Source: Nitrosopumilus sp. (GTDB lineage Archaea > Thermoproteota > Nitrososphaeria > Nitrososphaerales > Nitrosopumilaceae). Taken from it: DNA of 64,000 nucleotides. Below the pieces are notes generated by a model. That model was not told the DNA's origin. It worked only from the letters and a program-made list of their open reading frames with translations, and did no database searches. How positions within the stretch are numbered: the stretch's first letter is position 1; every line of letters starts with the position of its first letter. The position numbers were made by a program, and so were the translations under genes. The DNA lies in the NCBI GenBank assembly GCA_965197525.1, contig OZ240211.1:608001-672000 (forward strand), in the 5' to 3' direction. Below are positions 8,698-35,984 of this stretch, one piece after another.

Positions 8698-10028
8698 GGT
8701 TCTGTTGGGTTAACGGGTGTTGACTGCTGAGGATCATGTCAGATTCCACAACCATCAACAACACATTGACTACTCGACTTTGACATATCGACTATTCGGA
8801 TTACCGGTCTGCAGGGTTCCGCCATCGCCGGTTCAAAAACACCGGACTGCGCTTCATGTATGCCATCTCTACTATCTCTAAACCTAGGAGACAGTTTGCG
8901 TGATATGTTCATGGCAGCGATAATATCCCTGTCCATAAACAAACCGCAATTATTACACGATGATTTACGATGTTGTTGCATGTCCTCTTGGAGTCTCTTT
9001 CCGCATTGCGGACACTGCGTGCTCGTGTTTTTTGGGTCTACTGTTTTTACAGGTAGCCCGACCCATTGGGCTTTGTATTCTATTTGTCTTTGTAGTTCAA
9101 AGAATTGCCATCCGTTCAATCTACGTCTGTATTTGTTGCCTTGACCGTTTCCTTTTCCGTACAGTTTTCTAATTCCCTTTAGATTTTCTAGAACAATGAC
9201 AGCCTTTTTCTTGACTGCATTGTCTACTATGTTTTTTGAGATTCTATGTATGTACTGTTTTGTCCTGTTTGACATTCTTCTCTGTTTTTCTTTGTAGAAT
9301 TGACCTTTCTTTCTTTTGTTGTTTCTACGGAAACTGGATCTGGCATGTATTGTGTTCTCTTTGATTGAGAGTAACTTGTTGGTTTTGTAGAATGTTACCT
9401 CTTCTTCATTTCCGCATGTGACGTTTCTAAGGTTTCTGTCTACTCCCACTGTCTTGGTGCACTCTATCTCCTGTACTTTTTTTGAAATACAAAGACTGAT
9501 GTTGAGAGCAGTCAATGAAAACGAGCGCACTGTCACGGTGGGATCAGACAGTATTTTTTGAGTATGTTCGTTGAGCAGGATGTTAATTGGATTTCTTGGC
9601 TTGTATGGAATTGTGAGTAAGGCGCCGTTGTGTTTTATACGGTAACAATTAGTGATAAACGGATTTTTGATAATTGGATCTTTTACTTTGAGGCCACGTT
9701 TGACTGACTGATCTCTGTTTGCCAGGATGCCCGCAGCTCGTGATATTGCATTGAGTTTGTATGAAGATAGGATGTCATAGTGACGTAATTCGTGATAGCA
9801 TAGCATAGACAACCGTTTCATGTTGTGGGTATCTTCCTTTAGCCCATCTTGATACAACGGTTAACCATGTCTGTGAACGTGATCATCATATCCATTAGGT
9901 CAGAGTTTGGTGTATGTTTTTGTGCTATTGACTTTATTGCTCTCAACAAGTATTGTACGGTTTAAGGTTATCTATATTTAGTGTTATGGGTATAATTTCT
10001 GATCAACACCCGTTAACCCAACAGAACC
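8698..10028 (-). mobile_element. TIR-bounded tnpB element, copy 1 (1331 bp)
   Basis: Perfect 26-bp TIR GGTTCTGTTGGGTTAACGGGTGTTGA at 8698-8723, with its reverse complement at 10003-10028. Nearly identical to 27341-28672. No 8-bp TSD. Confidence 0.92.
8739..9949 (-). pseudogene. tnpB: tnpB, frameshifted near codon 35
   Basis: Relative to copy 2 (agccctatct) one T is missing at 9845/9846 (agcccatct), giving an early stop. The downstream 372-aa frame retains the RuvC and Zn-finger motifs. Confidence 0.85.
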
Positions 10029-10340
10029 GGCGACTGCAATGATTGCAGTCTCTTGTCTGTCAAATGAGACCAAAAATAGGCTAAAAAAATGATTGTTCAG
10101 ATTGCATATAACTCATGTTTACTCATTTGCCATCATGGCAGGAATACTTGCAGATTCTCTAACAAGATTATAGTATCGTGAGATAACCGACTATAGTAAG
10201 TTACTAATCATTTTCTACTATGTGTTTTATAGATAAAAATCAACAAAATATGTGAACGATTATAAAAAAAAATGAGTAACGCCGTAATCTAGAACAAAAA
10301 AAACAAACTGTATAAGAAGCATTAAAACACTTTAGCAATG

Positions 10341-20605: not shown

Positions 20606-22084
20606 TTAGGAAGAAGAAGAAGAGCCAAGAACAATTATCCCATTTTCTACAAGGAATTGAATTCCAGAAACGAACGAGTCATCATCCAAGAGGCCTTCTG
20701 CCCACCATCCAGCATTGGTCTTCACCCAAGAAGGAATACTGGTATCGGCTGTATCACTAGTAGTGCCTTGAGATGTTTCAGGTATCTGCATAATGCCATT
20801 ATCAATAAGATAGACAATTCCGTTTATAAACGAGGAATCATCCAAGAGGCCTTCTGCCCACCATCCAGCATTGGTCTTCACCCAAGAAGGAATAGCAGTT
20901 GTTTGAGAAGCAGGGGCGTCATCATTGGGAAAGATCTCAATTTCCATTTGTAGATAATCAGGAACATCTGATGGAACAATTCCTATACGTGCTAGACCAT
21001 GTACCCATATCACATAGTTGGCAGTGCCCGGATCCTCCATTACAGGAAACGTAACAAGGGCCTGTCCTGATGGAGAATAAAGAAATGGTCTACCCTCTTC
21101 TTGCGCAATCGATCTTAATGGGTTTAAATCATCATCAACAACTAAAAAGTCGTATTGAACTTGGTTCAAAAACTCGGTCTCGTCACTGAATTTGAGGAAT
21201 TTTATCAACCAATACATCTCACAACCTTGAACTGGATCTTCAGGACCATAAAATGCATGTATTTGATATTGGAAGTTCTTTGTAGATTTTTTTATGGTAA
21301 CATCTTTTGTCGGATCTACATCGCAGCCAGATGCTACAAATTGGTCAGTAGTCGAGATGACTTCTGCAAATGGATCTTCAGTCACGTTTTCTTTATAGTC
21401 TAGTAACTCAAACTCGTACTCTATTGGAGGAATTCCCTCTGAAACATGAGTATATGTCAAAGCACGAATTGGGAATGGGAAATCATCTACAACCCATATT
21501 TTGCTTTCATATCCACCAGTTCTCCAACCCACTATGACAGCCTCCCAGGTACCAGCAGGAACAGTAACAACCTCAATTGCTTGGGGAGCTACCTGTTCCC
21601 CACCAATATTTGCAATCTTTCCCCAAGATATTGCACGGAACTCTTTTGGACCTTTTCCAGAACCAACTTCTGATGTTGCAAACGAGGATAGCCAACCCAC
21701 AGAGGATTTAAACGCACCACGATAAGGACCCAACTCATCGCTGCCGCCACTAGGCTCAGTAGCAACTTTTGATAGATGTAAATCTCCCACAATACGTTTA
21801 TTGCCATCATAAACTACAGCTTTTGCGAGCCATTGTGTTTCAGTACCAACTTGTATGTCGCCTTTAATCCATAAATCTAGATAAAATGTAGAGCATTCGT
21901 CATGATCTACATGACACATTCTATAAGAGAAAAAGTCACCGTGTTTGAGACCTTCGCCTGTATACCACGTCCCATCTTTGTCAACACCTCCTGATTGGAA
22001 TTGGGCATATGCGGTAGGAACTAGTAATGAGCCCAATAACAACACAGCGACAACTGCAGAGATAGATAGTGTAATTTGATTCAA
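20606..22084 (-). CDS. Secreted protein with two C-terminal IPxWVKxNAGWW thaumarchaeal surface-anchor-like repeats
   Basis: Signal peptide and duplicated IPSWVKTNAGWWAEGLLDD..F..GI.(Y/F)L..NGI. Confidence 0.8.
   Translation of the reverse strand: MNQITLSISAVVAVLLLGSLLVPTAYAQFQSGGVDKDGTWYTGEGLKHGDFFSYRMCHVDHDECSTFYLDLWIKGDIQVGTETQWLAKAVVYDGNKRIVGDLHLSKVATEPSGGSDELGPYRGAFKSSVGWLSSFATSEVGSGKGPKEFRAISWGKIANIGGEQVAPQAIEVVTVPAGTWEAVIVGWRTGGYESKIWVVDDFPFPIRALTYTHVSEGIPPIEYEFELLDYKENVTEDPFAEVISTTDQFVASGCDVDPTKDVTIKKSTKNFQYQIHAFYGPEDPVQGCEMYWLIKFLKFSDETEFLNQVQYDFLVVDDDLNPLRSIAQEEGRPFLYSPSGQALVTFPVMEDPGTANYVIWVHGLARIGIVPSDVPDYLQMEIEIFPNDDAPASQTTAIPSWVKTNAGWWAEGLLDDSSFINGIVYLIDNGIMQIPETSQGTTSDTADTSIPSWVKTNAGWWAEGLLDDDSFVSGIQFLVENGIIVLGSSSSS
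20681..20894. repeat. 58-bp identical direct repeat
   Basis: 20681-20738 is identical to 20837-20894. Confidence 0.85.
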
Positions 22085-24017: not shown

Positions 24018-24092
24018 GCTCCTATAGTGTAGTCCGGTTAAGCATTTTGGCTTCTCAAGCCAAAGACTCGGGTTCAAATCCCGATGGGAGCA
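24018..24092 (+). tRNA. tRNA-Glu(CTC)
   Basis: GCTCCTA/TGGGAGC acceptor, anticodon arm TTGGC-TTCTCAA-GCCAA, T loop GGTTCAAATCC. Confidence 0.97.
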
Positions 24093-26885: not shown

Positions 26886-27340
26886 AATCTGTATTCGTTG
26901 ACCATGTTTAAAACAGTTTAATATAAAACGATGTTTTGGGAATAATGATTAATTTATAACATTGATTCAAAATACATCAATCATCAAAATTCATGCCGTT
27001 TAGAACATGATAATTAGTTAAGAGAAAGAATAACCGCAGATAGTGTATTTTTTGTAATAGTATAACATATCACGGCGATGTAAGATTTTGGGTTTTAGAT
27101 AGGATCTCAGATGATCAGAAAGAGAGATGTCTGCTAACAAAAATAACTGGTTGGATGTTCTTCCATAGTTTGCCATAATTTACAAGTGCCAAAATGACGC
27201 AACAGATACAAAATAGATGTAATTCAAATCTACAAGATGCAAGTATTTCAATCACACAATTCCGGTAGATTACCACGTGAGGAGATGATCAGGGTACTGA
27301 GAAGCAACGAGCGATAAACAACACAATATCGTAGATTAAG

Positions 27341-28672
27341 GGTTCTGTTGGGCTAACGGGTGTTGACTGCGGAGGATCATGTCAGATTCCACAACCATCA
27401 ACAACACATTGACTACTCGACTTTGACATATCGACTATTCGGATTACCGGTCTGCAGGGTTCCGCCATCGCCGGTTCAAAAACACCGGACTGCGCTTCAT
27501 GTATGCCATCTCTACTATCTCTAAACCTAGGAGACAGTTTGCGTGATATGTTCATGGCAGCGATGATATCCCTGTCCATAAACAAACCGCAATTATTACA
27601 CGATGATTTACGATGTTGTTGCATGTCCTCTTGGAGTCTCTTTCCGCATTGCGGACACTGCGTGCTCGTGTTTTTTGGGTCTACTGTTTTTACAGGTAGC
27701 CCGACCCATTGGGCTTTGTATTCTATTTGTCTTTGTAGTTCAAAGAATTGCCATCCGTTCAATCTACGTCTGTATTTGTTGCCTTGACCGTTTCCTTTTC
27801 CGTACAGTTTTCTAATTCCCTTTAGATTTTCTAGAACAATGACAGCCTTTTTCTTGACTGCATTGTCTACTATGTTTTTTGAGATTCTGTGTATGTACTG
27901 TTTTGTTCTGTTTGACATTCTTCTCTGTTTTTCTTTGTAGAATTGACCTTTCTTTCTTTTGTCGTTTCTACGGAAACCAGATCTGGCATGTATTGTGTTC
28001 TCTTTGATTGAGAGTAACTTGTTGGTTTTGTAGAATGTTACCTCTTCTTCATTTCCGCATGTGACGTTTCTAAGGTTTCTGTCTACTCCTACTGTCTTGG
28101 CGCACTCTATCTCCTGTACTTTTTTTGAAATACAAAGACTGATGTTGAGAGCAGTCAATGAAAACGAGCGCACTGCCAAGGCGGGATCCGACAGTATTTT
28201 TTGAGTATGTTCGTTGAGTAGGATGTTAATTGGATTTCTTGGCTTGTATGGAATTGTGAGTAAGGCGCCGTTGTGTTTTATACGGTAACAATTAGTGATA
28301 AACGGATTTTTGATAATTGGATCTTTTACTTTGAGGCCACGTTTGACTGACTGATCTCTGTTTGCCAGGATGCCAGCAGCTCGTGATATTGCATTGAGTT
28401 TGTATGAAGATAGGATGTCGTAGTGACGTAATTCGTGATAGCATAACATAGACAACCGTTTCATGTTGTGGGTATCTTCCTTTAGCCCTATCTTGATACA
28501 ACGGTTAACCATGTCTGTGAACGTGATCATCATGTCCATTAGGTCAGAGTTTGGTGTATGTTTTTGTGCTATTGACTTTATTGCTCTCAACAAGTATTGT
28601 ACGGTTTAAGGTTATCTATATTTAGTGTTATGGGTATAATTTCTGATCAACACCCGTTAACCCAACAGAACC
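27341..28672 (-). mobile_element. TIR-bounded tnpB element, copy 2 (1332 bp), with 8-bp TSD
   Basis: 26-bp TIRs at 27341-27366 and 28647-28672 (1 mismatch). AGATTAAG lies immediately on both sides (27333-27340 and 28673-28680). Confidence 0.95.
27382..28593 (-). CDS. tnpB: TnpB RNA-guided endonuclease, full length
   Basis: RuvC-I VGVDRN, RuvC-II VLENL, Zn finger TSTQCPQCG...CNNCG, RuvC-III DRDIIAAMNI. Confidence 0.95.
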   Translation of the reverse strand: MLRAIKSIAQKHTPNSDLMDMMITFTDMVNRCIKIGLKEDTHNMKRLSMLCYHELRHYDILSSYKLNAISRAAGILANRDQSVKRGLKVKDPIIKNPFITNCYRIKHNGALLTIPYKPRNPINILLNEHTQKILSDPALAVRSFSLTALNISLCISKKVQEIECAKTVGVDRNLRNVTCGNEEEVTFYKTNKLLSIKENTIHARSGFRRNDKRKKGQFYKEKQRRMSNRTKQYIHRISKNIVDNAVKKKAVIVLENLKGIRKLYGKGNGQGNKYRRRLNGWQFFELQRQIEYKAQWVGLPVKTVDPKNTSTQCPQCGKRLQEDMQQHRKSSCNNCGLFMDRDIIAAMNISRKLSPRFRDSRDGIHEAQSGVFEPAMAEPCRPVIRIVDMSKSSSQCVVDGCGI

Positions 28673-28717
28673 AGATTAAGTATCTTTTAATATCCAAATT
28701 CAGCCTCTAGTATTATT

Positions 28718-28791
28718 GCAGTTATAGTACAGTCTGGTTAGTACTCGTGCTTGCCAAGTACGTGACCCGGGTTCAAATCCCGGTAACTGCA
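28718..28791 (+). tRNA. tRNA-Gly(GCC)
   Basis: GCAGTTA/TAACTGC acceptor, anticodon arm CGTGC-TTGCCAA-GTACG, T loop GGTTCAAATCC. Confidence 0.97.
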
Positions 28792-28795
28792 TTGT

Positions 28796-34423: not shown

Positions 34424-34535
34424 TAGTATTAGTTTGTTTTTATTTAAAAACGTTGTCAGGGATGGTTCTGTGAAGTTATCGAGGGTTATCTGTTAATCCC
34501 TAAATTGTATAAACCTCTAAACCGTAAGATATTCG

Positions 34536-35729
34536 TTGAAAGCGATAAAGTCATTATCACAGAAATATACGCCGAACTCTGATCTAATGGATATGATGGC
34601 TATATTCACAAAGATGGTCAATCATTGCATCAAGACAGGATTGAAAGAAGACACTCACAATATGAAGAGGTTGTCCATGTTATGTTATCATGAATTACGT
34701 AATTATGACATCCTGTCTTCATACAAACTAAATGCAATATCACGAGCTGCAGGCATGTTATCAAACAGAAAACAATCAATCAAACGAGGTGTCAGAATAA
34801 GAGACCCAATAGTCAAAAATCCCTTTATGACAAACTGTTACGGTATACAACACAGCGGTGCACTATTAACAATCCCATACAAGAAACATAACCCAATCAA
34901 CATTTTACTCAACGTTCACACCCAAAAAATCCTATCTGATCCCGCCTTGACGGTGCGTTCGTTTTCATTGACTGCTCTGAACATCAGTCTTTGTGTTTCA
35001 AAAACAGTACAAGAGATAGAGTGCACCAATCAAGTGGGAATAGACAGAAACCTAAGAAATGTGACGTGTGGGAACAAGCAAGAGGTGACAGTCTACAAGA
35101 CAAACAAACTGTTATCCATAAAGGAGAACACAATACACGCCAGGGCAGGCTTCCACAGAAATGATCGCAGAAAGAAAGGTCAATTCTGGAAACAAAGACA
35201 GAGACGAATGAGCAATAGAACAAAGCAGTACATCCACAGAATCTCAAAGGATATAGTAGACAACGCAGTCAAAAACAAGACTGCAATCGTCATGGAAAAC
35301 CTGAAAGGAATAAGAAAATTGTACCGAAAAGGAAACAGTCAAGGTAACAAGTACAGGCGTAGATTGAACGGGTGGCAATTCTACGAGTTACAACGCCAAA
35401 TAGAATACAAAGCCCAATGGGTCGGGTTGCCTCCAGTCGAGACAGTAGACCCAAGAAACACGAGCACGCAGTGTCCGCAATGCGGAAAGAGACTCCAAGA
35501 GGACATGCAACAACATCGTAAAATGTCGTGTAATAATTGCGGTTTGTTTATGGACAGGGATATTATCGCTGCCATGAACATATCACGCAAGCTGCCCCCT
35601 AGGTTTAGGGGTAGTAGAGATGACATAGATGAAGCGCAGTCCGGCACTTTTGAGCAGGCGATGACGGAACCCGGCACACCATTGGTAATCCGAATAGTCG
35701 ATATGTCAAAGTCAAGTTATAGGGGTTAA
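34536..35729 (+). CDS. tnpB: TnpB RNA-guided endonuclease, full length
   Basis: VGIDRN, VMENL, TSTQCPQCG...CNNCG and DRDIIAAMNI. Homologous to 27382-28593. Confidence 0.95.
   Translation: MKAIKSLSQKYTPNSDLMDMMAIFTKMVNHCIKTGLKEDTHNMKRLSMLCYHELRNYDILSSYKLNAISRAAGMLSNRKQSIKRGVRIRDPIVKNPFMTNCYGIQHSGALLTIPYKKHNPINILLNVHTQKILSDPALTVRSFSLTALNISLCVSKTVQEIECTNQVGIDRNLRNVTCGNKQEVTVYKTNKLLSIKENTIHARAGFHRNDRRKKGQFWKQRQRRMSNRTKQYIHRISKDIVDNAVKNKTAIVMENLKGIRKLYRKGNSQGNKYRRRLNGWQFYELQRQIEYKAQWVGLPPVETVDPRNTSTQCPQCGKRLQEDMQQHRKMSCNNCGLFMDRDIIAAMNISRKLPPRFRGSRDDIDEAQSGTFEQAMTEPGTPLVIRIVDMSKSSYRG
35592..35714 (+). ncRNA. Putative TnpB omega-RNA scaffold overlapping the tnpB 3' end (also at about 8772-8894 and 27415-27537 on the minus strand)
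   Basis: Stem CTGCCCCCT-AGGTTT-AGGGGTAG versus CTGTCTCCT-AGGTTT-AGAGATAG in copies 1/2 shows two compensatory pair swaps. omega-RNAs are known to overlap tnpB 3' ends. Exact RNA ends unknown. Confidence 0.55.
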
Positions 35730-35984
35730 CCCTCGATAACTTCACAGAACCGGGAATAGAGATGTCATAATTAACCGTATAAAATAATCGGCATGCCTAA
35801 AGAAAGACAAGTCTACAATCTGATTATAACAGGCATAAAATACAAAAGGCGAGTATACCATATTTGAACCACATTAATCTAAATAACGTATGTGTCACCA
35901 CGCACAAGTTGAATATTTTATTGTATCATACGTACAAGCTACGAAAATATCATTTTTATGTAAATAAGTCCTGAGAAGAACAAG

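Follow-up and report, generated by a model that had tools for sequence, protein, structure and literature searches.

The window analysed here, a stretch of 64,000 nucleotides (nt) from Nitrosopumilus sp. contig OZ240211.1 (positions 608,001 to 672,000), contains three copies of a transposable element that has tnpB as its sole gene, and this report concerns the 3′ end of the element designated copy 3. Copy 3 (34464..35751, + strand) spans 1288 bp between perfect 25-bp terminal inverted repeats, the left of which (34464..34488, +) begins GGTTCTGT and the right of which occupies 35727..35751 (+). Its tnpB open reading frame (ORF; 34536..35729, +) encodes a protein of 397 amino acids (aa) that scored 74.7 bits against Pfam Cas12f1-like_TNB and 127.5 bits against NCBIfam guided_TnpB (cutoff 100). 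The RuvC-II E, the RuvC-III D and the zinc finger of this protein align with Cas12f/TnpB structures, and a GIDRN motif read from the sequence represents RuvC-I.

Copies 1 (8698..10028, − strand) and 2 (27341..28672, −) form a second subfamily. Copy 2 holds an intact tnpB (27382-28593; 403 aa), a scaffold at 27419-27543 and an 8-bp target duplication, CTTAATCT, at 28673-28680 and 27333-27340. Copy 1 has lost 1 nt close to codon 30 (counted in the copy-2 frame), and the resulting frameshift reduces its ORF to 372 aa; its scaffold (8776-8900) and ends are intact, with the tail at 8707-8775 and the tip at 8698-8706. The host genome (2.21 Mb, G+C 39.6%) as a whole carries ~34 full-length tnpB-element copies of several subfamilies together with about a dozen short derivatives; the copy-3 element itself is present in 16 copies at 94–100% identity. 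Direct 8-bp target duplications (≤1 mismatch) flank 22 of 35 genome copies. Every TnpB relative fetched from the class (42–91% identical) has an element ending in ...CAGAACC or a near variant, ~160–200 nt past the RuvC-III codon, and the association of TnpB with this type of end is on this comparison judged to be old.

Structure and covariation of the RNA scaffold

The 160 nt at 35592-35751 constitute the 3′ end of the copy-3 element, where a first-pass annotation made from the letters of the window had proposed an omega-RNA-like covarying structure overlapping the end of tnpB. RNAalifold and the covariation found in foreign genomes both supported this proposal. The scaffold core (35586..35713, +) lies within the last ~125 nt of tnpB and is composed of stem A (35592..35614, +; invariant loop AGGTTT at 35601-35606), stem B (35641-35645 with 35654-35658, +), stem C (35665-35668 with 35689-35692, +, bearing an inner two-pair extension) and a closing helix (35621..35708, +) in which TGACATA (35621-35627) pairs with TATGTCA (35702-35708) and encloses stems B and C. 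With the ORF stop at 35729 and the element end at 35751, the scaffold overlaps the tnpB 3′ end.

The differences between subfamilies on which the proposal had been based were confirmed in detail. Stem A reads CTGCCCCCT/AGGTTT/AGGGGTAG in copy 3 and CTGTCTCCT/AGGTTT/AGAGATAG in copies 1 and 2, with two base pairs swapped and the encoded peptide changed (LPPRFRG versus LSPRFRD); the second stem is CCGGC..GCAGG in copy 3, including one G.A mismatch, and CCGGT..ACCGG in copies 1 and 2; and the closing pairing of G(A/G)CATA with TATGTC is retained. Similarity between the subfamilies falls off directly past ...GATATGTCAAAGTC (35713), still inside the element, and is followed before the repeat by 53 unrelated nt in copies 1 and 2 and by 13 nt in copy 3.

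Covariance analysis of homologous 3′ ends was performed with RNAalifold on 38 distinct genome copies and returned 33 pairs in five helices, 10 of them compensatory, with 98.4% of cells paired and 73 cells changed on both sides. No shuffled alignment scored as high (0/500), and structures slid by 1–3 columns paired only 26–39% of cells. Columns 13 and 29 of stem A, for example, are occupied by UA 24 times and by CG 14 times. A covariance model built from the genome copies located the scaffold at the tnpB 3′ end in 33 loci of other genomes, and among 32 distinct foreign scaffolds 90.1% of cells were paired and 22 of the 33 pairs were compensatory, including 6 pairs of the closing helix changed on both sides; these sequences were not in the model-building set, but their alignment was fitted to the model, which favours the structure. 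Slid controls on the foreign alignment, which preserve sequence relatedness, paired 28–46% of cells. Single-sequence folding against shuffles (z = −1.44) was uninformative alone, and an Rfam scan at a permissive threshold gave chance-level matches to unrelated families only (top match 19.7 bits, cutoff 50).

The compensatory changes alter amino acids of the TnpB tail, and therefore the constraint acts on a folded nucleic acid. The scaffold fold is real, with covariation far beyond chance, and is almost certainly the guide-RNA (omega-RNA) scaffold of the TnpB nuclease.

A terminal hairpin where a built-in guide had been proposed

Past ...AAAGTC (35713) the tails of the subfamilies differ from one another, measure 25–100 nt and always terminate in the right repeat. 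The first-pass annotation had taken the stretch following ...GTCAAAGTC to be a guide fixed inside the element, a claim that is not supported: the stretch is the 5′ arm of a terminal hairpin (35714..35742, +) in which the inner right inverted repeat provides the 3′ arm. Folding of 37 own and 27 foreign distinct tails showed that most share this hairpin architecture, down to 42% TnpB identity, with onset 0–2 nt past the scaffold and ~9 nt (NACAGAACC) left unpaired in most tails; across these 64 distinct tails the hairpin sequences of different clades are unrelated despite the shared architecture. In a fixed register the 5′ arm paired with its own 3′ arm at 4.51 of 7 positions as compared to 3.70 ± 0.14 for permuted arms, and none of 2000 permutations was as high. 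The duplex formed by the inner repeat and the adjacent inside sequence has an energy of −8.3 kcal/mol at the right end and −4.8 kcal/mol at the left, and the right-end duplex is the stabler in 27 of 31 elements, although the copies are related and the test overstates the difference. Left-end hairpins were weak and inconsistent, and a symmetric DNA feature was rejected. The hairpin is absent from the transposase-bearing elements described below, and in two relatives (L058 and L082) the tail is the repeat alone. The arm resembles the repeat because it pairs with it, yet it has bulges, unlike a guide–target match. The stretch once read as a built-in guide is thus a structural hairpin arm.

The targets that a fixed guide had been supposed to address (another element, the terminal repeat or foreign DNA) were also searched for. 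Internal candidate guides compared with the genome by BLAST matched only other copies of the same tails, and the copy-1/2 candidate, already reported to be unmatched in the window, likewise gave no target in the whole genome or in viral contigs. The internal 18-mer of copy 3, taken directly behind its scaffold, has one exact viral match, preceded by TTA, in a 6.5-kb IMG/VR contig of 38% G+C (L189:2190-2207, −), which was treated as chance as ~2 such 18-mer matches are expected by our own estimate. A TldR-like or domesticated TnpB with a fixed guide does not fit the alignment of the RuvC-II E and RuvC-III D or the lack of a genomic target.

The unpaired 9-nt tip, CACAGAACC (35743..35751, +), forms the element end and is the proposed 3′ strand of a pseudoknot. 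In an unbiased duplex search of the tip against the upstream scaffold, the stem-A loop came out as best partner in 22 of the 41 distinct elements of this genome and in ~19 of the 27 from other genomes, with complementarity reaching 7–9 bp in some clades. Between the close relatives L075 and L077 the loop changes from AGGTTCTG to AAGTTCTG as the tip changes from CAGAACC to CAGAACT, a single compensatory case. The tip most likely pairs, to judge from this complementarity, with the GGUU(U/C) loop of stem A. In the ISDra2 omega-RNA, a pseudoknot also known from Cas12 guide RNAs, where it is conserved, joins nt −5 to −3 next to the guide to nt −103 to −105 near the 5′ stem, with stem 4, a hairpin, just upstream (PMC10097598). 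The tip of our element stands where ISDra2 has this guide-adjacent strand, which counts against a guide fixed inside the element. Parts of this region occur in assembled contigs of one sponge metatranscriptome: one stops 17 nt past the scaffold, one reaches the element end and one continues 255 nt into the flank.

A one-sided motif at the insertion sites

The first-pass annotation had seen no common target-adjacent motif (TAM) in the three flanks of the window, and this was wrong: TTG (34453..34455, +), TTG (10037-10039, −) and ATA (28681-28683, −) each lie exactly 8 bp outside the left end of copies 3, 1 and 2, respectively. Reading positions in tnpB orientation, 5′ of the left 8-bp duplication, the 35 own copies have T at −10 in 33 cases, A or G at −9 in 34 and T at −11 in 26 (a T-T-purine motif, TTR), with T at −10 and a purine at −9 jointly in 33. 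Nothing comparable to this bias was found in the right flanks of the same copies. The joint motif recurs in all 18 elements with clean duplications from seven other genomes (TnpB 45–90% identical), giving 51 of 53 tnpB elements in total, and is present at about background (2 of 16 orientation-cases) in eight transposase-bearing elements with clean duplications. The left flanks are furthermore enriched in A at −16 (22/35) and −15 (25/35), and AT-rich sequence fills the 12 nt that precede the duplication, which could mean that the motif is longer or that AT-rich intergenic DNA is preferred.

In an empty site the motif stands directly 5′ of the duplication and right flank, that is, of the sequence transcribed right after the tip, so that it occupies the place required of a TAM if the guide begins at the element end. 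TTR accordingly placed looks like a TAM, and the guide most likely begins in the flanking DNA, with the duplication followed by the right flank. For copy 3 the predicted guide template is 35752..35767 (+), based on the TAM position and the architecture of the RNA. Copy 3 has no duplication and its own empty site is not reconstructable. A DNA contig of run X5, from a related organism, links 34463 to 35753 via 223 different letters, and that site thus carries a short sequence where the window has the 1288-bp element.

IS6-like ends and a transposase encoded elsewhere

A DDE protein of 378 aa is the product of a 1970-bp element that shares this tip and is flanked by an 8-bp duplication; the protein scored 42.1 bits against Pfam DDE_Tnp_IS240 (cutoff 27) and 102.8 bits against NCBIfam transpos_IS6, which is below the cutoff of 125. 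Relatives of this IS6-like transposase were found in 91 of 251 genomes of the family. Elements with the GGTTCTGT tip, 8-bp duplications and a transposase gene include L031 (G000:746375-748544; transposase L031:589-1725) and those at G000:1956395-1960520, 583727-588872 and 699962-703151, and in a transposase element of another genome (L178) a 22-nt repeat identical to that of copy 3 surrounds the transposase gene. The larger transposase-bearing elements (3–5 kb) hold extra genes, including a methyltransferase-like ORF. Inverted repeats starting with GG and 8-bp target duplications are hallmarks of IS6 in ISfinder descriptions, and the tnpB elements show both. An IS200/IS605 (IS1341-type) identity was considered for the tnpB elements and fails on the 25-bp perfect repeats and the 8-bp duplications of 22 of 35 copies, both of them features that IS200/IS605 lacks.

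The tnpB element has no transposase gene of its own, and none of 30 transposase loci contained tnpB. From the matching ends and this separation of genes, the tnpB elements are read as non-autonomous passengers of IS6-like ends, probably moved by the IS6-like DDE transposase encoded elsewhere in the genome.

The short derivatives (208–500 bp) have both inverted repeats and have lost tnpB, and they retain the last 100–380 nt of the gene (scaffold included), the tail and mostly a TATA-like box at the left end. Their deletion breakpoints are independent of one another, and the majority also adjoin TTR. Examples are L088 (G000:549001-549271), L089, L092, L093 and L101, with genome places at 548812-549199, 803351-803738, 516420-516797, 870887-871264 and 1385894-1386101. 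By their content they look like candidate guide-RNA-only riders relying on TnpB in trans.

Proposed mechanism and alternative explanations

Directly observed are the covarying structure, the terminal repeats and target duplications, the architecture of the hairpin, the motif on one side only, and transposase elements whose ends match. We consider it likely that copy 3 encodes the omega-RNA of a TnpB nuclease within a non-autonomous, IS6-like-ended transposon, the guide being supplied by the flank. The position of the RNA 3′ end, the pseudoknot, the action of TTR as a TAM, and homing are inferred. In this mechanism the RNA would start in the last ~125 nt of the tnpB frame with stems A, B and C and the long-range closing helix, pass through the hairpin, to which the inner half of the right inverted repeat contributes the 3′ arm, and complete its scaffold with the 9-nt transposon tip NACAGAACC, so that the tip–loop pseudoknot would come to lie directly 5′ of the guide, as in ISDra2. 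The guide would be transcribed from outside the element, from the 8-bp duplication and the next ~8–12 nt, with a predicted RNA 3′ end 16–20 nt beyond the element end ...ACAGAACC. A site lacking the element would read T-T-purine followed by the guide bases, with TTR serving as TAM, and TnpB would cut such insertion-free alleles for recombination to copy the element in. A homing or gene-drive role of this kind has been described for IS605 TnpB (review PMC13565253). The occupied site would be spared, as the left duplication offers no more than 8 nt before the element begins and its right counterpart follows ...AACC and not TTR. Transposition itself would be performed in trans by the IS6-like DDE transposase.

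Several observations weigh against this mechanism. Target duplications are missing from 13 of 35 copies, copies 1 and 3 among them, and a search for reciprocal junctions that would account for these two copies found none. The variable insert of 25–100 nt between core and guide is without precedent among the systems tested. The pseudoknot is supported by complementarity and one compensatory case, tip and loop are otherwise nearly invariant, the loop also codes for a conserved Arg-Phe, and the GATT loops of relatives L060 and L064 would mispair with the tip. The metatranscriptome consists of assembled contigs only, and neither RNA ends nor RNA levels can be read from where these contigs stop or how deeply they are covered; the transposase-bearing control set is small (n=8). 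Finally, a transposase lacking target preference does not account for ~95% of the copies being TAM-adjacent, and either only TAM-adjacent insertions persist or TAM recognition helps to choose the site. That TnpB, or its TAM-reading surface, directs IS6-like insertion 8–9 bp downstream of the TAM in one orientation is a form of the latter that we regard as improbable; if true, such TAM-directed insertion would represent a guide-independent partnership of TnpB and a DDE transposase resembling CRISPR-associated transposons (CAST).

The alternative to which we give most weight, while still holding it unlikely, accepts the scaffold and interprets TTR as an insertion preference of the transposition machinery instead of a TAM, leaving the guide location and the role of TnpB open. 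The motif is short, the left flank is AT-rich overall (A being common at −16 and −15), the controls are few, and IS6-type elements are thought to copy and not to excise, for which restorative homing is not obviously needed. Symmetric ends, however, should yield a symmetric or orientation-free motif, and the motif here is one-sided in 51 of 53 elements and was found in only 2 of the 16 cases of transposase-carrying elements. Cas12f protospacer-adjacent motifs are likewise T-rich and end in a purine.

A guide fixed inside the element, with the scaffold ending at GUCAAAGUC and the next 16–20 nt directed against an element, a repeat or foreign DNA, is considerably less probable than an insertion preference. 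It would agree with the drop of subfamily homology exactly at the scaffold end (the closing helix terminating 6 nt earlier), with the resemblance of the 5′ arm to the top strand of the left repeat beside the conserved tip, and with the exact viral match of the copy-3 18-mer behind TTA. The segment nonetheless pairs with its own repeat with bulges, in a conserved hairpin, and is never a clean match to any repeat; the genome offers no target, the copy-1/2 candidate has no viral match and about two chance 18-mer matches are expected; the tails of L058 and L082 consist of nothing but the repeat; and the one-sided TTR beside the duplication would go unexplained. Least probable of all is the absence of any functional RNA, with the conservation attributed to protein constraint on the C-terminal tail of TnpB or to DNA hairpins of transposition. 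The region is indeed coding, and its single-sequence fold is only mildly better than that of shuffles, but the compensatory changes alter amino acids, 22 of 33 pairs covary in relatives, the short derivatives retain the region without tnpB, and the transposase-bearing elements do without the hairpin.

TnpB is seen as a nuclease that serves homing in elements whose excision leaves no scar, such as IS605 and IS607, and its use in transposons that make duplications has been raised as an open point (review PMC13565253). Our favoured mechanism, an omega-RNA guided by the flank of an IS6-like-ended element, provides a testable layout in which the scaffold is partly built from the transposase's inverted repeat and the duplication would act as guide seed with the TAM just upstream. 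The dozens of young copies constitute a natural experiment on TAM adjacency at insertion as opposed to later selection. The chief correction to the earlier reading is that the guide most likely does not travel with the element.

Other features of the window

A tRNA-Gly(GCC) gene (28717-28792, +) is separated by 44 bp from copy 2 at its left end, and a tRNA-Glu(CTC) gene is found at 24018-24092. A tandem pair of a 105-nt unit (83% identity) at 20634-20894 is unrelated to the tnpB element.

Comparison with known systems

The closest described counterpart is the ISDra2 omega-RNA of IS200/IS605, also termed reRNA (right-end element RNA; PMC10097598), in which the scaffold similarly overlaps the tnpB 3′ end and reaches the right transposon end, and in which a hairpin is located directly upstream of the strand that precedes the guide. 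Pairing of that strand with the neighbourhood of the 5′ stem as a pseudoknot, a guide taken from the flank and a T-rich TAM 5′ of the target would also be shared. Unlike in ISDra2, the right end here is a DDE-type inverted repeat and not the hairpin end of a Y1 transposase, that repeat supplies the final hairpin and the putative pseudoknot strand, and the 8-bp duplication would furnish guide nt 1–8 with the TAM upstream of it.

DDE-associated and solo TnpBs have been described between inverted repeats, where tnpB stops no more than 250 bp short of the end of the transposon; this proximity was interpreted as a sign that guides are obtained in a related manner (Altae-Tran et al. 2023; PMC10691335). 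Our elements resemble these in lying between inverted repeats, in the same closeness of the tnpB 3′ end to the transposon end, and in the solo copies presumably being mobilised in trans. The DDE families named are IS630 (PMC10691335) and, via a review (PMC13565253), ISL2 and IS1031; IS6 is not among them, and neither a TAM upstream of the duplication nor a repeat-built hairpin is described in PMC10691335.

The Fanzor omega-RNAs of transposons with terminal inverted repeats and target site duplications (review PMC13565253) offer a further parallel, as there too a TnpB homologue resides in cut-and-paste elements and the guide lies beyond the inverted repeat. Their short and specific duplication (TA, TTAA) is counted as belonging to the TAM, in contrast to the duplication here, which is 8 bp of any sequence and would form part of the target. 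The 208–500-bp derivatives, which keep both ends and the omega-RNA region and not tnpB, are comparable to the palindrome-associated transposable elements (PATEs) and mini-elements of IS200/IS605, and differ from these in ends that are IS6-like repeats with 8-bp duplications. What our analysis would add to the published descriptions found is an IS6-like partner, a hairpin and putative pseudoknot strand built from the repeat, and a candidate TAM positioned upstream of an 8-bp, putatively seed-forming duplication.

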